DNA from: Escherichia phage SDYTW1-F1-2-2_3
Sequence record: OR296290.1
DNA: 64,000 nt
Strand: one strand, 5' to 3'
Each line of letters opens with the position of its first letter. The stretch's first letter is position 1. The notes under the pieces were generated by a model. The model had not been told where the DNA came from, did not search any database, and saw nothing but the letters and a program-made list of their open reading frames with translations. The position numbers and the translations under genes were made by a program. Below are positions 2,061-64,000 of the stretch, in pieces.

Positions 2061-3164
2061 TTACAGCGCTTGCTCTAACTGATTTTCCAGATGATCTGGA
2101 ATGTACCCTGTGATGTTGTTATCACTGTGTCCTGACTCACGTAGCAAGTCAAAAATAGCACGGATACGTTGCTCTGGTGCAGATCGTACAGTAGATAGAT
2201 CGGTAGTACGAAGCATAACCAGAATCTCTTGGTACAAGTTGTTAGCGTTCCCTCGGACATATCCAAGGAATCCGTAGAAGTCTGAGATATGACGTAGGTC
2301 AACAAGAACTTCTCCGTTGGAGTTGGTTCGACGTAAACGAATACGACCAGACTGTTCTACTTCATGAGAACGACAATACAAAACATCACGGGCCATACAA
2401 TACCCTGAATGCAAGTCCGACTCGTCCAGATTGTAATCCAGAGGAAGGTAAGGAAGCATTGGGGCAAATCGTACAGTATTTAAATGCTCGATAAACTGAT
2501 CATTGCTCATCTCTGCGTTATCTAAAGCCAGCTTCTTCAACATCAAGAAGCGGTTAACCAGATTGAGAAGTTGACCACGTTTCCACTTAGGCTCACTGAT
2601 ACGGAACTCAATCGAACCATATTGGGCAAGTGGCAGAAGGTTCAGAGATGTATATTTATCCCATGAACGAACCAGACGGTTGAAGAACTCTTCATCGTCG
2701 TAGTTAAATGCGTCAGAGGCATTCATTACCTGTGCTTGTACCACTGCGAAAGCAGGGCAGAAGTTGCTACGGTAACGATGGTAGCCTGAACACTTGAACA
2801 ACATCTTTTCATAGAAGGTCCAAGCGAGAATGGTTTTCTTGAGGATATTACTATCAGCATCCCTCATATCCATATGAACGTGAGTAGAGCAACGCCAAGT
2901 CCCCTCGGCGTGCGATTCAGCTACAGCTTCACTCAGGTTGTTGATAGCGTCTAACAACTCCTGTCCGTTGTAAGGTCGTGAACATACCATTTCACAACCA
3001 TTACGCAGGGAACCATCCTCTGTACAATCCCACATATCTGCTTCGATATGATCGGAACCTTCGAGTTCAAGTTCAATACCGACACCGCACTGAAGTGCAA
3101 TTGAACTATGCGCCTCAGTTAAATGACCTTCTCGATATCCAAAAGTTTGCGCTACAGTTGTCAT
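2061..3164 (-). CDS. glutamine-synthetase-like amidoligase family protein (putative)
   Basis: 367-aa track ORF; GVGIELELEG and STHVHMDM motifs resemble the E-x-E and H-V-H signatures of amidoligase/GS-like ligases; adjacent to the amidotransferase gene. Confidence 0.45.
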   Translation of the reverse strand: MTTVAQTFGYREGHLTEAHSSIALQCGVGIELELEGSDHIEADMWDCTEDGSLRNGCEMVCSRPYNGQELLDAINNLSEAVAESHAEGTWRCSTHVHMDMRDADSNILKKTILAWTFYEKMLFKCSGYHRYRSNFCPAFAVVQAQVMNASDAFNYDDEEFFNRLVRSWDKYTSLNLLPLAQYGSIEFRISEPKWKRGQLLNLVNRFLMLKKLALDNAEMSNDQFIEHLNTVRFAPMLPYLPLDYNLDESDLHSGYCMARDVLYCRSHEVEQSGRIRLRRTNSNGEVLVDLRHISDFYGFLGYVRGNANNLYQEILVMLRTTDLSTVRSAPEQRIRAIFDLLRESGHSDNNITGYIPDHLENQLEQAL

Positions 3165-3778
3165 AATGAATCCACCAACGTAATATTGTAATTGCTAAGG
3201 TTTTCAGAAATGTGATGAAAGTGTTCCAGAAGTCGCATCGGTTGCTGACCGTAAGAGTCACGAGGCGCTTCCAGATCTACTTGTCCTACCAGTGCACCTT
3301 TATAATGCACCTTACCATCAGTAGGGTTGATGTAAATATAACGAGTGACCAATCCTTCGAATTCAGGATTGAACAGACTGTAAACCATCTCCCCGGAGAT
3401 AGCACGACCAACACCCGGAGCATTTCGAATCTTGTTACCCATCAAACCCTTTGCTCTCTGACGAACAGGGTTAATATGAGTCCAGCTTACAGTGTTACCG
3501 TTATGGAACAGATAACCAACATCAGGTGATTCAAGAATCAAGGTTGGGTCGAACACTGGAATATTCATCGTAGTATTTCGAAGATTCCCTTGCTCGTTCT
3601 TGTACCACTGCTCTACAACAAAGTACAGAGCCTGTTCTGCTTCGTGAGAGAAGTCATCACTGCGGAAGTTACCGCTCTGCTCAACACCAATCACAAAACA
3701 CGGAAGGTTGATATTACCTGCTCGTTTAGCAATCCATGTACCATTATAGTAATGAGAAAAATCAGCTACTAAGCTCAC
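3161..3778 (-). CDS. hypothetical protein in amidoligase cluster
   Basis: 205-aa ORF; 4-nt overlap with downstream gene; no motif recognised. Confidence 0.5.
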   Translation of the reverse strand: MSLVADFSHYYNGTWIAKRAGNINLPCFVIGVEQSGNFRSDDFSHEAEQALYFVVEQWYKNEQGNLRNTTMNIPVFDPTLILESPDVGYLFHNGNTVSWTHINPVRQRAKGLMGNKIRNAPGVGRAISGEMVYSLFNPEFEGLVTRYIYINPTDGKVHYKGALVGQVDLEAPRDSYGQQPMRLLEHFHHISENLSNYNITLVDSL

Positions 3779-3787
3779 GATAACCTC

Positions 3788-4597
3788 TTATGCTACCTGA
3801 AGGAGTTTGATCTGCTGGTCAGCTTCTTTAACGTTGTTGCCGTTAATGATTTCATGAAGCTTCTCAATCGGAAGGCGAGAGTGCAATGCCATCAGAGTGG
3901 ACATATCACACTGCTGAACAACCTTGTCAACCTGATCGTAAACAAACTTACGATTTTCACGATCACTAATCCAGAAATTAGACAGTGAACGATATTCAAT
4001 ACCGTAGTCTTTATAACGGATTGCAGACGCTTTACCGTAGAGTTCTTTACGGCGAGTATCTTTATCCATAATAACTGCTGGAAGAGATAGGAAGTAATCA
4101 CACAACACACCCAGCATCATCTGAGTTTGCAGAGTGATATCCAAAGCACCAACTACGCCGAGATGTACGTGACCACCGGCAGTACGAAGTCCCTTATTCT
4201 GAGAAGTCGGGGATGGGTTCTTCTGACCAGTGAAAGCGTTGAAATCAGGAGTGCATCCGAAGATGAACGCTGATTCATTGAAAGTCTTCATCTCTTCTTC
4301 AGTGAAGATGTGAGAGCTAACACCCGGAGCTGTTTCCATGTCCAGTTTGTTCAGGACATTGTTGGTGAGATCGATACCACGTTGCATGTTATCGTTAAAC
4401 GCTTCAAAGCCGCTCTGTGGGTCAATATCAAACTCAGCCAGTACGTTGTCCTCTTGAAGACGAACATCCTTAGCCAGAGTGATCTTATCGTCCTTAGAAC
4501 AACCTAACAGACCAGCTACAGAGGTGATAATACCATTGCTGGTACGAACGAACATTTCCGGGTCGCTTCCTATTAAGAATTTACGTTTAGTAGTCAT
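3788..4597 (-). CDS. COOH-NH2 ligase-like (GS/GCS-like) protein (putative)
   Basis: 269-aa ORF; FLIGSDPEMF and GGHVHLGV motifs resemble carboxylate-amine ligases; same operon as amidoligase. Confidence 0.4.
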   Translation of the reverse strand: MTTKRKFLIGSDPEMFVRTSNGIITSVAGLLGCSKDDKITLAKDVRLQEDNVLAEFDIDPQSGFEAFNDNMQRGIDLTNNVLNKLDMETAPGVSSHIFTEEEMKTFNESAFIFGCTPDFNAFTGQKNPSPTSQNKGLRTAGGHVHLGVVGALDITLQTQMMLGVLCDYFLSLPAVIMDKDTRRKELYGKASAIRYKDYGIEYRSLSNFWISDRENRKFVYDQVDKVVQQCDMSTLMALHSRLPIEKLHEIINGNNVKEADQQIKLLQVA

Positions 4598-5064
4598 GCT
4601 TTAGTCCAACCTTTATGAGATAGATAGTTTTTAAATCTGCCACTGTGCACAGCGCCCATGTGGCCTTGATGTAAGTCGTTGCTTCTACAGAAGTCTCTAA
4701 GATTGTATATTGTTACAACCTCGCCATCTGGAGATCTAAACTTCCAAAATCTAGCATTCCCTTTCACAGCGTTTTCTTCACTGGTCAGAAGTTGGAAATT
4801 ACTTGGGTGGTTATTAAGTTTATCACCATCGATGTGATCAACAGTCATACCATCCGGAATAGGTCCAATAAACAATTCATACATAAGTCTATGTAATAAA
4901 AAGTTCCTTGTTATCTTTTCAGGGGCTTGCACTGTTGTAAACTTTAGATAACCATCCTTATCAGGAAACAGTTTCCTCTGTTTCCCTGTTCTTGAATGGA
5001 ATATACTACCATCTTCGAACACTAAGAAGGTAGCAACTCCGACTACTAACTCCCTAAATTCCAT
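4594..5064 (-). CDS. HNH homing endonuclease
   Basis: 156 aa; VDHIDGDKLNNHPSNFQLLTSEEN matches the HNH His-Asn-His motif; free-standing between ligase-cluster genes. Confidence 0.65.
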   Translation of the reverse strand: MEFRELVVGVATFLVFEDGSIFHSRTGKQRKLFPDKDGYLKFTTVQAPEKITRNFLLHRLMYELFIGPIPDGMTVDHIDGDKLNNHPSNFQLLTSEENAVKGNARFWKFRSPDGEVVTIYNLRDFCRSNDLHQGHMGAVHSGRFKNYLSHKGWTKA

Positions 5065-5091
5065 AGGAAGGAGCCAATAAGGAAAGCGCGC

Positions 5092-6063
5092 TTAGTCATT
5101 GTAATACTCCACTAATTCAGAAAAGAGAGATGAGATTGTGTTACCAACTTCTTCAAGAGTAAGACCGGAATCTGCTCCAGTTCTTTGAATCAGTCGGGCT
5201 GTAAAGTTTTGTACTGTAATGTTTCCCAACTTGTCGTCTATTGCTTCACGTTTGTGACCATAACAGTTGGACCAGAGTCTTAACCACTCTGACATTGTTT
5301 CATACTCGTCCGGGTCTTGATCTTTAGCACGAGCAAATCTTCGTAAGGCATCTTGGTTATGGTTACGAACATAACCATTCTCGTTGTCGCCAACACCGAA
5401 GGGGTTTTGAACCCATACTTGCTTCGTGTATTCATCAGAGTCTACAACCAAAGGAAGGAATGCTGCTGCTGACATATTGTTATTAACAACAATAGAGGTG
5501 CTCTCGCTACTCCCATTGGCTCTTCCTCGTTGAGACCACCCACCGAAGAAGTCACGACCCAACCCAGCTAACACTAGAGCGATGCCGATGCGTTTACGCT
5601 TCAGCCACTCTTCCCTGTCTTCAATTCCTTCTGCTAGGAAATCCATTCCACGATACTGCCCTTCCAGAATACTACGGAAAAGCATAAGTCCTGTGAAGAT
5701 CTGATCTGCTGGATGCTCACGGAGGTTGACAGCAACACTATTCGCTGAAGTGATTGTAAATACGTCACGATAGCAAGACATAGAGTTCATAATGTCTGCT
5801 GTTTCAACCAAGTTCTTTTCAATATCAGATGCAACATGACCGTGAAAAGAGTGAGTCCAGTAATTCAACATCTCCAATTGCAAGTTGATATCACGGTTGA
5901 AGCGTCTATAATGCCTCTCTCCCATGATAACTTCACCATTAACATCAGTTACGCACTGGCCTTGCATGTAGTTGTGGATACCGAAGCATCCACGACCTAA
6001 GAACTTCTGTTCCCCTAAATCTTGTTGAAGACTCAGAGGTACGATCGTTGTGGAGATTGACAT
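5092..6063 (-). CDS. hypothetical protein in amidoligase cluster
   Basis: 323-aa ORF co-directional with cluster; family not recognised. Confidence 0.5.
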   Translation of the reverse strand: MSISTTIVPLSLQQDLGEQKFLGRGCFGIHNYMQGQCVTDVNGEVIMGERHYRRFNRDINLQLEMLNYWTHSFHGHVASDIEKNLVETADIMNSMSCYRDVFTITSANSVAVNLREHPADQIFTGLMLFRSILEGQYRGMDFLAEGIEDREEWLKRKRIGIALVLAGLGRDFFGGWSQRGRANGSSESTSIVVNNNMSAAAFLPLVVDSDEYTKQVWVQNPFGVGDNENGYVRNHNQDALRRFARAKDQDPDEYETMSEWLRLWSNCYGHKREAIDDKLGNITVQNFTARLIQRTGADSGLTLEEVGNTISSLFSELVEYYND

Positions 6064-6073
6064 AACTAACCTT

Positions 6074-7270
6074 TTATTTTCCTAAAAATAATCCGCTCAT
6101 AACACCATCCCACTCAGAGGACGGAATCACTGAATACTCCGAACTTTGGTCCAGAGTTCCACTACTAAATCGCTGAACAATGTTATAGATGTTGAACATA
6201 TCTTTAGTCTCAGCGCGATAAGCGTAGACTAGTCTGTCAGCCGTTCTTTCATCTTTAGATACTCGACGAGCAAAGGTAACCAGAAGGTTATCACCTTTCA
6301 GTATTTCTGACTCATCTTTTACTAAATCAGGATGCATAACTGGCAAGAACATCGAGTTATTAACTCTCAATTCTGCTGTTTCGTCATTATCATAATGAAT
6401 CCACTTAAAGTCTTCATCACGGAAGTGACCGCATCCATCTCTGTATGACTGTTGACGCCAAGGTACTTGGAATGCTTCAGCATACTTATCAGCCATGCCT
6501 ACTGTAAACAGCGACGCTGGGAAGATACAAGCATCCCAATCATTACCAACCAGAGTTGCTTTCGTTTCACCCAAGAGGTTAGTGTAAGTGCTAACCATTC
6601 GGGAATAAACGTAAGCCTGAAGGATTGTCCAACCTTCAACCAACCATTTATGAAGGAAGGTTTCAACTTGACTCTCTTCATCTTCACAATAGAAGGTTCG
6701 ATCTAACATCAAATAGAACAGACAACGATCAGCAGGAACATTCTCAGTTGCTACACCCATAAAACCTTTATCGTGCCAGCGTAAACAGGAGGGACGATCT
6801 TTGTCCACAAATGCTTCCATAGCTTCCAGTACAGCACGAGGTGTGGTTTGATGTTCAGGGTTTTTACTGTTCCAACGATCAATGTTATTCTTAGGAGGTG
6901 TGTCTTCATCTTCATACGAACACCAACTTAAAGCTTCAGCTACGTGCTTTCCATCACGCCAGCGTCTAAAACCTAACATCTTCATGTGAGTTCCGGAGTT
7001 CCAGATATGCTTGATTTTACACATATCCATTTCTCGACTTAACAGGAACTCTTCCCCATCAGCACTACGAACGTTAGCTTCTTCATGCCACACTCGAACG
7101 TGCATATTCCACCCATGAGTTGCCTCATACATGTTAGGGTCGAAGTATTCATCTTCGTCATCATCTTCATCAACGCCACCATTATAGTTGCGAAGCTGAA
7201 GGAACCCATAACAAGGAGGGTGGACCGTTAAAACATTACCTTCAGTATCTTCTAATGTTACTGGAAACAT
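6074..7270 (-). CDS. hypothetical protein with acidic tract, in amidoligase cluster
   Basis: 398-aa ORF; DEDDDEDEY acidic run near N-terminus; family not recognised. Confidence 0.5.
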   Translation of the reverse strand: MFPVTLEDTEGNVLTVHPPCYGFLQLRNYNGGVDEDDDEDEYFDPNMYEATHGWNMHVRVWHEEANVRSADGEEFLLSREMDMCKIKHIWNSGTHMKMLGFRRWRDGKHVAEALSWCSYEDEDTPPKNNIDRWNSKNPEHQTTPRAVLEAMEAFVDKDRPSCLRWHDKGFMGVATENVPADRCLFYLMLDRTFYCEDEESQVETFLHKWLVEGWTILQAYVYSRMVSTYTNLLGETKATLVGNDWDACIFPASLFTVGMADKYAEAFQVPWRQQSYRDGCGHFRDEDFKWIHYDNDETAELRVNNSMFLPVMHPDLVKDESEILKGDNLLVTFARRVSKDERTADRLVYAYRAETKDMFNIYNIVQRFSSGTLDQSSEYSVIPSSEWDGVMSGLFLGK

Positions 7271-52936: not shown

Positions 52937-53744
52937 TTATTCCCAAGTTTTTTCGAGCCACGACCAATCAAATAGGTCTTCCGGAGTCTGACCAACAAAG
53001 AGCAGCTGAGCATTCTCAAGCATCTTCTCTTCATCTTCAGTATCGAACTTCTTATAATATTCCATTCGTACTATATGATACATGGTCCACTTGTCTGTAA
53101 CACCAGCCAATAACTTAGCTGCTGCTTTCTTCCCTATTCCTTGACGTCGAAGCTGAAGCTTACCGCCCCACATAACTTCTTTACGTTCTCCACATCCGGG
53201 GATATTATCTGTACCATCTCCAACCAACATCTGATAGAAGAAGTTTTGCCATGAAACTAAATCAGATACATAGTGAGGAGGAACCTCTTTCTGTCTTTCT
53301 CCACAAGCCCAACGGTAGTGCCATCCGGGAGTTATCAACAAATCTTTGTCTCTAGTACAAATGATAGTGTTCTTGTCCCTACGCTGCCTTTCAGCTAGTG
53401 CATCATCAGCCTCTCTCCCAAATACATCTATGTATTCATATTTACCTTTAATATAATCACCAACATTTTGCCAGTGAAAAGGTCTCTCTCCGGGAGGTCT
53501 ATTTGCTTTGTAGTCTTGCTGCTTAGCAACATCAAAGCGGAAGTTACCACCTTCGCTGAAGTAGAACACAACCTTACTACAACCAGAGCGAGCTATGATT
53601 GTATCAATCTTATACTGAAGTCGTTCAATCATGAAATTGTAATCAACTGGAACACGTCCTGTGTCAAGAAAGGGATGCTCCTGAGTAAGAGCACCCACTT
53701 CATATCGAAGAACGTCAGCATCCACTATAGCCACTTCAGGGAGC

Positions 53745-53767
<23 letters not shown>
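52937..53767 (-). CDS. 5'-3' exonuclease / flap endonuclease
   Basis: 276 aa; FGREADDALA matches the G-x-EADD motif of the 5'-nuclease family. Confidence 0.6.
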
Positions 53768-59105: not shown

Positions 59106-60950
59106 TTAGTGGGTTTGCATCCAATTCAATCCGATTTTGCAATCAGAGGCTAGCTCGCAGTGCATATTTAGGTATTCTCCAGCCTTCTTAACACATTCCT
59201 CAGCGATGGTCTTCATTTTATGAACATCATTACGGTTAACAGACCACTGAGCTTCATCATGGTAGTCAATTACTTTGTTACCTCTGATATTCTGTTGATC
59301 TACCCACTTGTTTGTGAAGAGGATAGAATACTTCATGACAATAGCACCCGCACTCTGAAGTAAAGTATTTAGTGCTTTATGAACCATAACTTTACCAGTG
59401 GCATCCCGTCTCATGGTCAACTTACGACCGTCCACACCTTCAAGAGTGCCTGTTTCTGCACGGGCTTGTACTCTCTCCAAGACAATTGGGATACAAGGGC
59501 ATTCTGCTAAGAAACGTTCTCTGAGAATTTCACCCTCTTGAGCGCCTCCTCCAACAATCTCTCCAATCTTAGCTGCGCCTGCCCCATATAGAAATCCATA
59601 GATAAAAGTTTTTGCATTATCTCTAGTTGGTAGGCCAGCTAGTTTCTGGTTGTGGGAATGGATATCACCTGAGAGAAGAATCTCTCGATAAGTATAAGCA
59701 GCCTCTAAGCCTTTCTCAGCCCTCAGATACTTAATTTTATCATTCTCTGCTTTGGCTTCTTCCATCATGTCAAGGCACTCTTTCACAAGATAGTGCACTA
59801 ACATACGCAACTCTAATCCAGAACCATCATACCCTAAGAATACTTCTTTACCAGCGGGTATGTAATATTTGTAAGCACCTACAGGTTTATCTTTCTTCCC
59901 CGGCTTACCTTTCTCATAAATTACGTTAGTACCTTTTCGTATATAACAACCATCAGGAACAACGTTAGTAATAACGAAAGGACGAGAGTGATCATCATCT
60001 GAGTTATAGTCAGACTCAAACAAACTGCGACACTCGTGACCAAACAAACCACGGGAGGGAATATTAACCACGATACGATGTTTGAATCGAAAAGTCGGCG
60101 TAGCGCAGCTGTTAGCTTCTGCCGAAAGTTTACCATCTTCGCGTTCCTTTGCTATGAGTCCACTGATAAGACCTAGCCTGTGAGCCGCTACAACGCGTCT
60201 CTTAAGCAAACTCCCGACACTCCCTAGCTCACCCCCTAACCCTTCTTCAAGAGTCTCCTCGAGGTTTGTAGGAGCTGTAGGCCACTTGTTTGAGGTAGCT
60301 AGTGCTATCTTAATCTCATCAAAAGTGATAGGTCTACGTCGGTTAGGGTTTAAACCTAAACCAAATACATAAGCCTTCATATAGTTCTTAGTCTTAAACC
60401 TAAAATGCTTCTCTAAGAACTTCCTAATATCAGCGTCAACCATCTCGGCTGTCTGCTTCTGTTTAGCATTACCTCGCATCCAAGCTGAATACCATGCTTG
60501 GTATGTTCCATACTTTCGCATATCTTTCTTGATTTCAAAAGTATTCCAAGGCTTCTTAGATACGTTAAACTCTGGAGGAAGAAAGCCCTCATCCATAAGG
60601 GCTTCTTTAACTCGTGCATCTTTCGATGGGTCAAAGTCCACGTATTCAACACAGGTGAATGCTCCACCAATGTCTTCTCTCTTAAGACCAACTCTATCAC
60701 AATAGGCTTGAGGCCACTTCTGTAAAGCTCCAGACTTCTTAAATGGCTTCATATAAGTAGAGCCATCTAATCTCATCTTAGGTAAGAGAGGAATCAATTC
60801 TTTGTCAATATTAACAATAATCTCTTTAAGGAGGTGAACATACCACCGAGCATTTCTTCGGTTGAAACTCACTCCGTGCTTCGCTTGCTTAGAGATTATA
60901 TCAGCGACAGTCATCTCTGTCAAAAATGGGAGAGCGTCCGGGTTGCTCAC
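59106..60950 (-). CDS. DNA polymerase, family A (polymerase domain only); GTG start
   Basis: 614 aa; motif A (DGSGLELRM), motif B (RDNAKTFIYGFLYGAG) and motif C (VIDYHDEAQ); GTG start with AAAGGAG SD; no 3'-5' exonuclease motifs seen. Confidence 0.75.
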   Translation of the reverse strand: MSNPDALPFLTEMTVADIISKQAKHGVSFNRRNARWYVHLLKEIIVNIDKELIPLLPKMRLDGSTYMKPFKKSGALQKWPQAYCDRVGLKREDIGGAFTCVEYVDFDPSKDARVKEALMDEGFLPPEFNVSKKPWNTFEIKKDMRKYGTYQAWYSAWMRGNAKQKQTAEMVDADIRKFLEKHFRFKTKNYMKAYVFGLGLNPNRRRPITFDEIKIALATSNKWPTAPTNLEETLEEGLGGELGSVGSLLKRRVVAAHRLGLISGLIAKEREDGKLSAEANSCATPTFRFKHRIVVNIPSRGLFGHECRSLFESDYNSDDDHSRPFVITNVVPDGCYIRKGTNVIYEKGKPGKKDKPVGAYKYYIPAGKEVFLGYDGSGLELRMLVHYLVKECLDMMEEAKAENDKIKYLRAEKGLEAAYTYREILLSGDIHSHNQKLAGLPTRDNAKTFIYGFLYGAGAAKIGEIVGGGAQEGEILRERFLAECPCIPIVLERVQARAETGTLEGVDGRKLTMRRDATGKVMVHKALNTLLQSAGAIVMKYSILFTNKWVDQQNIRGNKVIDYHDEAQWSVNRNDVHKMKTIAEECVKKAGEYLNMHCELASDCKIGLNWMQTH

Positions 60951-61392: not shown

Positions 61393-61668
61393 TTAACCTT
61401 TTGGGAATGGTGTTAAAGATTCCATAGCAGCTTTGATTTCACTATTGATTCGAGCATCACGATAAGAGATAAACTTACCTTTGCTGTCACGTAACATCAC
61501 ATGGGTTCTGGCTGTTTTGTGAGGGAGCAATGTGATACTGGTTGGGATAGTGTCAACCCCTGCAAGATATGTGTCAATAGTCTTGCTTTCAGTCAACAGA
61601 TAAGACCAAGTCTTATCTGGATGGTTAGGATATGTGTCTCGAATCTGAACCATAGCTAACTTATTCAT
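61393..61668 (-). CDS. small protein, paralog pair member A
   Basis: Shares KTART.V.LR...GKFISY......E...A.E.L.PFPKG with 61670-61921. Confidence 0.45.
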   Translation of the reverse strand: MNKLAMVQIRDTYPNHPDKTWSYLLTESKTIDTYLAGVDTIPTSITLLPHKTARTHVMLRDSKGKFISYRDARINSEIKAAMESLTPFPKG

Positions 61669-61669
61669 A

Positions 61670-61921
61670 TTAAACTCCTTTAGGGAATGGGATAAGGTTT
61701 TCTACTGCAACACGGAATTCTTTCTCTACATCTTTATTCTTATAAGAAATGAACTTCCCGTCAGCTCCACGTAGGATTACATTAGTACGAGCTGTTTTTG
61801 GGTTATGACTAATCTGGTTTGCAATAATATTAGCAATGCCGTGGTTATTGGTAAATTTCCATTTAACCATACGATTGTTAGACATTACATCAATGATATT
61901 TACAGATTTTACAATAGACAT
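61670..61921 (-). CDS. small protein, paralog pair member B
   Basis: Tandem paralog of 61393-61668. Confidence 0.45.
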   Translation of the reverse strand: MSIVKSVNIIDVMSNNRMVKWKFTNNHGIANIIANQISHNPKTARTNVILRGADGKFISYKNKDVEKEFRVAVENLIPFPKGV

Positions 61922-61989: not shown

Positions 61990-62313
61990 TTACGTTGAGC
62001 TTAAAGCTCCTTTTCGCTTAGCAGCACCAGCTGCCTTCCCAGCTCGATCTCCACTTTTGCCGCCAGCTGAACGATTTCCGCTGACTGTTTCAACACGTAA
62101 GTTGCTTGACGCATTAGAGCCTCCTGACTTGATGGCTCGCTTGTGTCCAACGTCTTTACCTCTGACAGCAGCTTTTCCATCGCGCTTTTCAACGATGCGA
62201 CGTGCACGGTGGCGCTGAGCATCTCCGCTCTTGCTCCCAATGCCTGTCTCACCACGGGCAATTGCGGTACGTCTTTCTTGTGCATAATCTCTCTTTCCTA
62301 CATGGTCTGCCAT
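61990..62313 (-). CDS. basic Gly/Lys/Arg-rich protein
   Basis: 107 aa; strong AAGGAG SD; preferred over overlapping alternative-frame ORF. Confidence 0.45.
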   Translation of the reverse strand: MADHVGKRDYAQERRTAIARGETGIGSKSGDAQRHRARRIVEKRDGKAAVRGKDVGHKRAIKSGGSNASSNLRVETVSGNRSAGGKSGDRAGKAAGAAKRKGALSST

Positions 62314-62369: not shown

Positions 62370-63107
62370 TTAAGCTTTCTTTTCCATTGCTTTAACAATC
62401 GCCTTACAGAAACCAGAACGAACAATGTCATCTGATTCACCATCTACAATCTCAGCGAACTCATACAGATCATGTTCATCAATAAAGTTAGTAGCCCAAG
62501 TAAGACCACTCTCACGACCACGCATATCATGCTGGTTAGTATCACCCATGCAGAACAGCTGAGAGGTTTCTCCTAATCGAGTCATGATTGAGAAGGCTTC
62601 ATCTTTAGTTGTGTTCTGGAACTCATCAACAATAACAATAGCATCATTGAAAGAACGACCACGGAGATATTCCAGAGGTACAAACTCAATGTTACTATTA
62701 CCGAGTTGGCATTCATAGAACCCTTTACCATATCGCTGAGTAATAACATCAATGATAGGCATCAAATATGGTTCAAACTTCTCACGCATCCCTCCCGGAA
62801 GTAACCCAAGTGAGTTACCCATTCCAACAGAAGGACGACTCAGAATGATCTTCTGAATCTTACCACTCTTCAGTGCATCAATAACTGTGGAAGTGATTAC
62901 AAAGGTCTTACCACAGCCCGCAGGAGCGTCTGTGAACACAACTTGCTTAGTCTTGATAGCATTGAGTAGCTCAGACTGAAACTGGTTCTGAGGGACTACA
63001 GGCTTTGCTAAAACCACCTCTTCAAACTCGCGCTTACCTTTACGAGTGACAAGTGCTTCCCGACGAAGGTCTTTCCGTGACTCTTTCCGTGATTGACGAC
63101 GACTCAT
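62370..63107 (-). CDS. PhoH-like ATPase
   Basis: 245 aa; Walker-A DAPAGCGKT and overall PhoH-like pattern. Confidence 0.6.
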   Translation of the reverse strand: MSRRQSRKESRKDLRREALVTRKGKREFEEVVLAKPVVPQNQFQSELLNAIKTKQVVFTDAPAGCGKTFVITSTVIDALKSGKIQKIILSRPSVGMGNSLGLLPGGMREKFEPYLMPIIDVITQRYGKGFYECQLGNSNIEFVPLEYLRGRSFNDAIVIVDEFQNTTKDEAFSIMTRLGETSQLFCMGDTNQHDMRGRESGLTWATNFIDEHDLYEFAEIVDGESDDIVRSGFCKAIVKAMEKKA

Positions 63108-63301
63108 TTACGCTCTCCAATTTCTTCGTAATGACACTCAGTAGTTAAACAATCTTTACAGATTGCTGTGTAAACCCTGACGTTAGTAAATCGTTTGTTC
63201 TTCCCTTTGGTTGGAGAGCCTTTGGCAAGCTCTCTGATAACCTTGTTACTTAAATGAAGGTTTGTTCCTTCACATCTAGAGCACTTCACCACAATGTCCA
63301 T
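63104..63301 (-). CDS. small zinc-ribbon-like protein
   Basis: CSRCEG...CKDC...C Cys pairs; 65 aa. Confidence 0.4.
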   Translation of the reverse strand: MDIVVKCSRCEGTNLHLSNKVIRELAKGSPTKGKNKRFTNVRVYTAICKDCLTTECHYEEIGERK

Positions 63302-63486
63302 TCAGTAAGAGACCACAGAGAGTCACCTATGTTGGCATTGTCATTCCTGATGAGGTCTTTGATTTTATCAACATCAGTTAAGTGAGTCACATTCAAAATA
63401 TCCTCAACATCCGGGGTATATTTAAATATGGCAACAATACTGTTGTGATCTTCAGCATATCTTTCTAGAACATAAACTACGCTCAT
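63286..63486 (-). CDS. hypothetical protein
   Basis: 66-aa track ORF. Confidence 0.4.
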   Translation of the reverse strand: MSVVYVLERYAEDHNSIVAIFKYTPDVEDILNVTHLTDVDKIKDLIRNDNANIGDSLWSLTEWTLW

Positions 63487-63806
63487 GCGACGTTAACCTC
63501 TTTATGAAGTCTGTAAACGGCTGTCGCCATACAAGCAACAGCCTCATTGTATGGGAGATGCATACCTGTAGAACCATCCCAATCTTTAAACTCGTTGTCA
63601 AAGACTCCAGTAGGCTCTGGATACAAGGCTTGCAACTCAACCAAATCGTTAGCAACTTGTTGCCATTTATCATCAGACCAGATAGGGTCATCCAACCAGT
63701 AATACAAATAGGAATGGATGATCAATTGCCTTCTGTGCCGATTAATTACTTCAGCGGGACTTATCTCACTTCCATTTGAAGTCCTAAATGTATTACTGTC
63801 AATCAT
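63483..63806 (-). CDS. hypothetical protein resembling the N-terminal Ia domain of NAD-dependent DNA ligase
   Basis: RHRRQLIIHSYLYYWLDDPIWSDDKWQQVANDLVELQALYPEP resembles the LigA domain Ia signature; no adenylation KxDG motif. Confidence 0.35.
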   Translation of the reverse strand: MIDSNTFRTSNGSEISPAEVINRHRRQLIIHSYLYYWLDDPIWSDDKWQQVANDLVELQALYPEPTGVFDNEFKDWDGSTGMHLPYNEAVACMATAVYRLHKEVNVA

Positions 63807-64000
63807 TATGAAAACTTCCGTTCTGTTAAAAAGTATTGAACTTCTTTATCTGGAGACCAAACCTTTTCTCCATCTACCAACTTCTTAGCATCTTCGTATG
63901 AAGCACAATCCAAAGCAGGGTTATCAGGCGTTGGTTTCCCTAGAAAGTATTTCCAAGTCCAACGCTCTCCGTCATCATCTTGACAGTCAAGAGTCCATAA
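63807..64000 (-). CDS. hypothetical protein, 5' end beyond window
   Basis: Open minus-strand frame running off the window end, stop at 63807-63809 just before next ATG. Confidence 0.35.

Follow-up and report, generated by a model that had tools for sequence, protein, structure and literature searches.

The stretch of DNA analyzed here, hereafter the window, comprises 64,000 nucleotides (~64 kb) of Escherichia phage SDYTW1-F1-2-2_3 (OR296290.1), a phiEco32-like podophage of E. coli (Kuravirus, Gordonclarkvirinae), and its last 3 kb show 95% identity to phages XT32 and XT73 and 91% to phage Paul. Close to its end, an open reading frame (ORF) running from ATG to TGA encodes a protein of 107 amino acids (aa), which an original prediction had singled out by eye for its resemblance to domain Ia of LigA, the bacterial DNA ligase dependent on nicotinamide adenine dinucleotide (NAD+). 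The ORF is real and lies on the minus strand, a detail missing from that prediction (Table 1), and its product is a stand-alone homolog of the ligase domain, known as Nlig-Ia. The gene is translationally coupled to both of its neighbors: its start overlaps the stop codon of the upstream gene (TAATG), and its stop overlaps the start codon of a downstream gene encoding 66 aa (ATGA). Based on these overlaps, it is therefore one link of a tightly packed minus-strand operon, in which the genes for ThyX, an exonuclease and a primase-helicase are followed by several small genes including that of Nlig-Ia, and then by those for PhoH and a family-A DNA polymerase (the ThyX/exonuclease/primase-helicase end lies past the window edge and was placed from phage Paul). 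A ribosome binding site is annotated in Paul at the position equivalent to the GGAAG sequence that precedes the window gene. Orthologs include the "NAD-dependent DNA ligase" of phiEco32, Paul gp060 and ECBP2_0056, the last being syntenic, between ThyX and PhoH; the window protein shares 95-99% identity with its counterparts in many Kuravirus genomes, and 74% with that of ECBP2. We found no source in the literature for the temporal class of the gene.

The protein matches the Pfam family PF22745 ("Nlig-Ia; DNA ligase-like, N-terminal NAD+-binding domain") with an E-value of 2.7e-35 and a score of 121.3 bits (cut-off 27), nearly over the full length of the model (residues 16-103 against positions 1-91 of 92). 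This is the only Pfam family above threshold in the 107 residues; all of the homologs that we aligned (52/52) match it too, and the protein also matches PHROG 6466 (E=2.3e-42). Searched as a single sequence against the PDB with phmmer, it returned weak matches to LigA N-termini (E 0.04-0.14); the profile of the 52 homologs placed E. coli LigA at the top (5TT5, 4GLX, 2OWO; E ~4e-4 to 7e-4), with LigA accounting for each of its six best PDB matches. The AlphaFold2 model computed from the homolog alignment is confident (mean predicted local distance difference test, pLDDT, 90.2; predicted template modeling score, pTM, 0.82), with helices at residues 17-38, 45-61 and 88-106, and its best fold matches in the PDB are NAD-dependent ligases, aligned through domain Ia alone over ~47-64 residues, such that the window protein has the fold of LigA domain Ia. 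The motif that had first drawn attention corresponds to residues 28-65 (LIIHSYLYYWLDDPIWSDDKWQQVANDLVELQALYPEP). Profile, fold and residue mapping thus bear out the resemblance seen by eye, the profile search and structure prediction having been proposed as checks in the original prediction, and we regard it as firmly established that the 107-aa protein is a stand-alone homolog of domain Ia of NAD+-dependent DNA ligase. Beyond the two helices of the ligase-like hairpin, an ordered loop specific to the family spans residues 62-87, includes a near-invariant F.DWDGSTGMHLP motif (invariant columns F73, W76, G78, T80, G81, H83, L84 and P85) and leads into helix 3 (88-106). A match to the immunity protein family Imm41 (E=3e-4) lies under the gathering score, is found in 2 of the 52 members and concerns a family described as alpha+beta; we treated it as chance.

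Five residues of domain Ia of E. coli LigA, namely Y22, H23, D32, Y35 and D36, were reportedly found by Sriskanda and Shuman in 2002 to be essential for the reaction with NAD+, and are said, from the same work and that of Gajiwala and Pinko in 2004, to contact nicotinamide mononucleotide (NMN). Based on HMMER alignments, and with a LigA N-terminus checked to be identical to residues 1-86 of 2OWO/4GLX, they correspond respectively to Y35, Y36, D45, W48 and Q49 of the window protein. Three of the five are identical or as in natural LigAs (Thermus filiformis LigA has a tyrosine at the H23 position, like Y36 here), the change from tyrosine to tryptophan is conservative, and that from aspartate to glutamine loses a charge. 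In the close family, as represented by the alignment of 52 homologs, none of the five positions varies. Over 52 to 200 members, the equivalents of Y22, H23, D32 and Y35 are invariant or conservatively aromatic, the aspartate and two aromatic positions staying constant in the wider family and the D36-equivalent position varying (Q > D > S/T/A and others). A LigA-type Y-D or F-D pair is retained in the members from phages of Arthrobacter, Clostridium, Streptococcus and Enterococcus, and the W-Q pair is therefore a variant of the clade found in phages of proteobacteria. Domain Ia is a hairpin of helices by which the ligase holds the NMN half of NAD+. In LigA, it orients the NMN leaving group, the nicotinamide being stacked by two tyrosines (PMC7470946). 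From the conservation of these positions we strongly infer that the window protein binds NAD+ or NMN.

Table 1. Features of the window around the Nlig-Ia gene and in the genes discussed with it (positions on the 64,000-nucleotide window).
Feature	Position	Strand	Basis
107-aa solo Nlig-Ia coding sequence	63483..63806	-	ORF list, Pfam PF22745, PHROG 6466, Kuravirus orthologs
GGAAG, Shine-Dalgarno-like, 8 nucleotides 5' of the ATG	63815..63819	-	sequence reading
H31-S-Y-L-Y35-Y36 codons, helix 1	63699..63716	-	invariant alignment columns, HMMER alignments to LigA
D45-D-K-W48-Q49 codons, start of helix 2	63660..63674	-	alignment columns, HMMER alignments
F73..P85 loop codons (F.DWDGSTGMHLP)	63552..63590	-	invariant columns, AlphaFold2 secondary structure and pLDDT
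Upstream 67-aa gene, 3' part, ortholog of Paul gp061	63806..64000	-	97% identity; no Pfam family
Downstream 66-aa gene, phrog_30988, same operon	63286..63486	-	ORF list, sequence, PHROG match
65-aa protein with two CxxC pairs	63104..63301	-	phrog_14369
107-aa Gly/Arg/Lys/Ala-rich protein	61990..62313	-	phrog_4590
83-aa member of tandem pair	61670..61921	-	phrog_6814
91-aa member of tandem pair	61393..61668	-	phrog_6814
Amidoligase/ATP-grasp cluster	2061..7270	-	

The window protein is a domain Ia and nothing else. The original prediction was correct in describing a free-standing domain with neither an adenylation domain nor a KxDG motif: PF22745 is the sole Pfam family, the chain ends at residue 107, and the string K74-D-W-D-G reads KxxDG. 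We rejected this as a cryptic ligase motif I, the spacing being wrong and K74 occupying a variable column of the family, and the nucleotidyltransferase of LigA with its motif I is absent from the protein. Pfam scans and phmmer likewise revealed no OB, Zn-finger, HhH or BRCT domain, either in the protein or in the genome searches. The same holds for the size of its relatives: the homologs listed in a search of 5.8 billion proteins (120 of 139) are 69-185 aa long, and an exhaustive profile search yielded 588 clusters (50% identity) at E<=1e-10, of which nearly all of the 150 listed representatives have 60-190 aa.

Several genes were considered as a possible catalytic half. The partial ORF upstream, in which the original prediction had suggested that a split ligase might continue, turned out to encode an unrelated protein, orthologous at 97% identity to the complete 67-aa Paul gp061 and without Pfam match. 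In Pfam scans, the Paul gp076 "nucleotidyltransferase" appeared weakly PolyA_pol/Pol-beta-like and the Paul gp084 "ATP-grasp enzyme" D-Ala-D-Ala-ligase/RimK-like, both of these genes belonging to the part of the genome that the window does not cover, and ten further non-structural ORFs of the window showed no ligase domain. We also ran phmmer --max with E. coli LigA, its residues 70-400 and T7 ligase as queries against six-frame ORFs of at least 60 aa from the window, from Paul 45-79 kb and from the complete genome of Arthrobacter phage Crewmate; no catalytic core was found among these ORFs, the only matches being the solo ORFs, through LigA residues 11-53 alone. The same three queries found no nucleotidyltransferase/OB core within 10 kb in 80 related viral loci, and 80 of 81 carrier phages had already been described as devoid of any ligase catalytic module (Iyer et al., 2022; PMC9503650). 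As far as Pfam and phmmer can detect, the phage thus has no ligase catalytic module of any kind. That the window protein might be one subunit of a split NAD+-dependent ligase whose catalytic half lies elsewhere in the phage genome is encouraged by the GenBank records and papers that name it "NAD-dependent DNA ligase", and had been raised in the original prediction; yet the upstream ORF is unrelated, gp076 and gp084 have other folds, the LigA 70-400 and T7 ligase queries match nothing, and there remains the near-complete lack of a catalytic module among the carriers of Iyer and colleagues. We therefore consider the split ligase excluded at the sensitivity available, with a residual probability that is practically negligible. 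A protein of 107 aa without catalytic lysine cannot ligate, and carriers are therefore to be treated as dependent on the host ligase.

The family is not new. It was named Nlig-Ia by Iyer, Burroughs, Anantharaman and Aravind (2022, Viruses 14:1977; PMC9503650), who reported solo proteins in 81 phages, gave ECBP2_0056 as an example, noted the retention of the ligand-binding residues, and suggested that the domain serves as an NAD+ sensor or as a shield against NADase effectors. With both the family and the ortholog of the window gene already described, the finding as given is a re-discovery; what goes beyond the 2022 account are the clamp-binding termini, the replication-module context (both below) and the variable D36-equivalent position. 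We found the family in 276 sequenced phage records, with hosts in Escherichia (87), Arthrobacter (60), Clostridium (51), Enterococcus (30), Erwinia (16, jumbo phages), Rhodococcus (10) and Streptococcus (3, including Dp-1 and MS1), as well as in 6 of 72,556 plasmids; using a restrictive pattern, there was a single match in 185,579 bacterial species genomes. Many GenBank records label the 105-107-aa protein "DNA ligase" or "NAD-dependent DNA ligase" (NC_010324 of phiEco32, NC_070992 for Paul gp060, MG983840, NC_070988), and a Kuravirus genome paper from 2023 counts it as the ligase of the phage (PMC9965538). This label is wrong, as these proteins have no catalytic domain. Rare long forms exist among the representatives: P0182 and P0206 (290 and 315 aa) continue after Nlig-Ia into a region of ~150-200 aa that matches phrog_13900 ("minor head protein") only, and these fusions may be gene-call run-throughs; P0219 (321 aa) consists of tandem Nlig-Ia repeats. 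None of the three was informative as a functional clue.

In four unrelated lineages, the Nlig-Ia gene lies inside a replication and nucleotide-metabolism module. It is found between DNA polymerase/PhoH and ThyX/exonuclease/primase-helicase in Kuravirus including the window, right behind the DNA polymerase I gene in Arthrobacter phage Crewmate, between NrdD and NrdG and beside helicase, primase and dUTPase genes in Clostridium phage CS06, and between RecA and clamp-loader genes in the pneumophages Dp-1 and MS1, a few genes away from the phage's own DnaN. We surveyed its neighbors at 80 IMG/VR loci, which represent 32 independent gene-content groups, by comparing their 2,106 ORFs with one another and clustering them, and through a Pfam census of 144 neighboring ORFs. 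DNA_pol_A recurs in the census, and Sir2, TIR, Macro, Nudix and NAMPT genes are absent from the 144 ORFs. We rejected the idea of a conserved partner gene, no family going beyond 15 of the 80 loci and the 144 neighbors being mostly without Pfam annotation; adjacency to PhoH, in particular, is limited to Kuravirus/Suseptimavirus phages.

A further set of observations concerns the ends of the relatives' proteins. In many of them, the folded domain is followed by a Pro/Ala- or Lys-rich linker of very variable length and then by an exact C-terminal Q-x-x-[LM]-F peptide (QMSLF, QASLF, QLSLF, QGSLF, QMALF, QRSLF, QFTLF and similar). Such tails occur at 11 of the 80 loci, each from another gene-content group (the ORF near position 10000 of L017, L018, L021, L026, L027, L029, L036, L041, L057, L063 and L090), and in 9 of the 150 listed representatives at 50% identity (P0018, P0029, P0035, P0064, P0075, P0155, P0234, P0244 and others), i.e., in ~7-14% of the relatives, and in none of 2,026 neighboring ORFs nor of 321 ORFs within the same high-GC loci. 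The bacterial beta-clamp-binding motif is QL(S/D)LF or QxxL(x)F and typically C-terminal, and LigA itself is a client of the clamp in E. coli and Helicobacter pylori (PMC4976356, PMC4549789). This suggests that the tails are beta-clamp-binding peptides, as predicted from their sequence. An AlphaFold2 model of one tailed member has a core with pLDDT 89-97 and a tail without secondary structure (pLDDT ~56-61), the tail being thus predicted to be disordered. The tailed form is absent from the cultured phages of the collection; one copy sits in a lambdoid prophage, and another one (ending in PAAPAQGSLF; L097:5992-6333) is the only match in bacterial genomes, from Janthinobacterium sp. CG3 (NZ_KB467826.1). 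The latter is immediately followed by genes for ParA-like and ParB-like proteins and a putative replication initiator, and adjoins an IS200/IS605 element, in what appears to be an episomal phage-plasmid-like replicon. Both the lambdoid prophage and this episome rely on Pol III, the clamp and the ligase of their host.

In another clade, the same kind of peptide seems to be attached at the opposite end of the protein. The annotated start of Dp-1 gp16 (L006:3845-4258) is an ATT inside recA; an alternative ATG at L006:3899 overlaps the recA stop (TAATG) and follows a GAAGG Shine-Dalgarno sequence, and translation from there gives an N-terminus MQKSLF followed by a basic/Pro linker. MS1 gp13 (L096:1405-1776) begins with MAQRTLF and a diverged linker, and the metagenomic representative P0245 with MKQRSLF. 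In both Dp-1 and MS1, where genes for the phage's own DnaN and clamp loader lie beside this one, the N-terminus has the appearance of a clamp-binding motif. As a side observation, the start of Dp-1 gp16 is thus probably misannotated, which, like the clamp tails, would be worth a short follow-up. The sole experimental datum that we found for any member is also from this phage, a yeast two-hybrid interaction between Dp-1 orf16 and the host RuvB (SP_0259) (PMC4840434). We did not retain it as a clue: RuvB also scores with unrelated phage proteins in the same tables, and is therefore probably a sticky prey in that screen.

Taking these data as a whole, our tentative reading is that the window protein, itself not catalytic, binds NAD+/NMN and serves as an accessory to DNA replication, the phage relying on the host LigA. 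The protein would bind NAD+ or NMN through a pocket made up of Y35, Y36, D45, W48 and Q49, and would be produced together with the phage's replication and nucleotide-metabolism genes to act as a replication accessory, the host NAD+-dependent LigA being needed for the sealing of Okazaki nicks. Its likeliest action would be to couple or assist nick sealing according to the supply of NAD+/NMN, for example by retaining the cofactor or LigA near the fork, or by clearing NMN, which is inhibitory. Among the relatives from beta-clamp-using phages and episomes, the domain would be tethered to the clamp by its disordered linker and QL[SD]LF-type peptide; the Kuravirus copy, in a phage with its own family-A polymerase and primase-helicase, is untethered, so that any partner would be contacted through the folded domain. 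Pushed one step further, and as an idea that we deem unlikely as it stands, solo Ia might be a trans-acting "cofactor arm" for the host LigA at phage and episome forks, on the clamp in the relatives and on the phage's own replisome here, that passes NAD+/NMN to or from LigA and would let phages without a ligase keep sealing Okazaki nicks when NAD+ is scarce or destroyed by host defenses.

A number of points weigh against an accessory role at the fork. We found no binding or genetic experiment in the literature for any member of the family; LigA already has its own Ia domain, and it is not obvious why a second one should be required in trans; and the LigA-essential D36 is a glutamine in the window protein and variable family-wide, such that the ligand could differ from NMN/NAD+. 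The window protein itself carries no clamp-binding peptide: its C-terminus reads RLHKEVNVA, and no Q-led motif is present in the N-terminal extension, which is folded (pLDDT 85). When the presence of a tail was set against that of an own PolA (0/10 vs 4/15 groups, p=0.12), the difference was in the expected direction, with tails in phages that lack a PolA of their own, and not significant, so that it is at most suggestive. The neighborhood of the gene is uninformative in the large Enterococcus and Erwinia phages, there is no universal partner gene, no neighbor family being found in more than 15 of the 80 loci on clustering of the 2,106 ORFs, and small early genes often lie near replication genes merely through the modularity of phage genomes.

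Among the alternatives, the published one would make the protein a cytosolic NAD+ sensor or buffer against host NADase defenses, with no specific link to ligase or replisome, that either reports to the phage the depletion caused by abortive-infection NADases or shields the NAD+ pool. It was proposed by Iyer et al. (2022; PMC9503650) and fits the conserved NMN-contact residues, the solo architecture and the near-exclusive presence of the family in viruses, with the 276 phage records far outnumbering the bacterial and plasmid copies given above. However, a 1:1 binder could not protect a metabolite pool of millimolar size, and a sensor needs an output, of which there is no sign as a fused effector domain or a conserved neighbor; none of the NAD-related families looked for accompanies the gene among the 144 ORFs, and the clamp-binding tails as well as the near-absence of phage ligases in carriers would be left unexplained. 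We hold this view to be somewhat improbable, and it is compatible with the accessory role, since a replisome-bound NAD+ sensor would satisfy both. Because of the replication context, the clamp tethers in relatives, the carriers without ligase and the lack of NAD-conflict genes nearby, we regard a role at the fork beside the host LigA as slightly more likely than a free cytosolic sensor or shield. The two functions suggested in the original prediction, an NAD/NMN sensor or a modulator of the host ligase, agree with the published proposal and with the context, which points to replication and the host ligase, and the interpretation given there is on the whole supported.

Inhibition of the host was also considered, and rated below both. 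Free Ia might dock on the nucleotidyltransferase domain of LigA, or, in tailed relatives, fill the clamp pocket, and thereby block nick sealing or polymerase access for host takeover. Domain Ia does pack onto the nucleotidyltransferase domain in the closed state of LigA (PMC7470946), clamp-binding peptides compete for a single pocket (PMC4549789), and small early inhibitors are common in phages. Yet blocking LigA would cripple phage replication too, because the carriers have no ligase of their own; an untethered domain would have to outcompete the covalently linked Ia of LigA, and a pure protein-protein blocker needs no strict conservation of nucleotide-contact residues, all of which makes this option doubtful at best. 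Finally, the NMN pocket might recognize the exposed nicotinamide nucleotide of RNAs with an NAD cap, or of Okazaki primers started with NAD+ at the fork, and direct their processing. Primase can initiate with NAD+, the domain would bind the NMN half of NAD+ that is exposed in the NAD cap, and tethering to the clamp would put the relatives at primer termini, but neither a decapping (Nudix) nor an RNase H partner is found among the 144 neighboring ORFs, and such a cap reader seems to us very improbable, and less likely than either the fork role or the sensor.

Compared with known systems, the window protein belongs to the solo phage Nlig-Ia family (PF22745) without reservation, with a match to the full-length model, a solo architecture and a ligase-less virus, and ECBP2_0056 is the same gene with nothing substantive different. 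In E. coli LigA, domain Ia comprises residues 1-69 (structures 2OWO, 5TT5, 1TAE, 1DGS), to which the nucleotidyltransferase, OB, Zn-finger, HhH and BRCT domains are attached; the window protein has none of these attachments and cannot ligate, its clade has the D36 to Q replacement, and its F.DWDGSTGMHLP loop and helix 3 have no LigA counterpart. Tailed relatives share with beta-clamp clients (Pol II, Pol IV, Hda, insertion sequence (IS) transposases, LigA) the arrangement of a folded module, a disordered linker and a Q-x-x-L-F end, their clamp binding being predicted, whereas the window protein lacks the peptide. Tad1/Tad2 and the NARP pathways are small phage proteins and pathways that act on NAD+-derived molecules during infection, and provide the functional analogy behind the sensor/shield idea. 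They have no kinship to Nlig-Ia in sequence or fold: they bind signaling nucleotides or rebuild NAD+, whereas Nlig-Ia is an NMN-binding hairpin derived from a ligase, and no enzyme partner is encoded close to it.

The misannotation matters in that carriers should be regarded as dependent on the host ligase. Set against the published "NAD+ sensor" idea, the clamp tails and the replication context offer a concrete alternative, one that would link NAD+ supply, host LigA and phage replication and that bears on how phages may cope with NAD+-depleting immunity. The window protein is small and, in the AlphaFold2 model, well folded, making it an easy target for an NAD+/NMN binding assay. If the "cofactor arm" were to prove true, it would represent a novel way for a virus to complement an enzyme of its host, and would add a new client to those of the clamp.

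Several other genes of the window deserve mention. The 65-aa gene between the Nlig-Ia operon genes and PhoH, which is translationally coupled, encodes a likely zinc ribbon with two CxxC pairs (CSRCEG...CKDC). The adjacent genes for 91 and 83 aa both match phrog_6814 (E ~1e-35 to 1e-39) and are a tandem duplication annotated without function, with the common core KTARTxV(M/I)LR(D/G)xxGKFISY. The phrog_4590 protein is named "autotransporter adhesin" or "isoleucyl-tRNA synthetase" in some related records, both implausible for a low-complexity basic protein. At the other end of the window, as in Paul 54-64 kb, lies a phiEco32-type cluster of amidoligase/COOH-NH2 ligase, ATP-grasp, glutamine amidotransferase and gamma-glutamyl cyclotransferase genes, which is predicted to modify peptides or metabolites and has no relation to Nlig-Ia. 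The family-A DNA polymerase is encoded separately from its 3'-5' and 5'-3' exonuclease genes (window 59106-60950 and 52937-53767; Paul gp077), and this split is a known trait of Kuravirus (PMC9965538).

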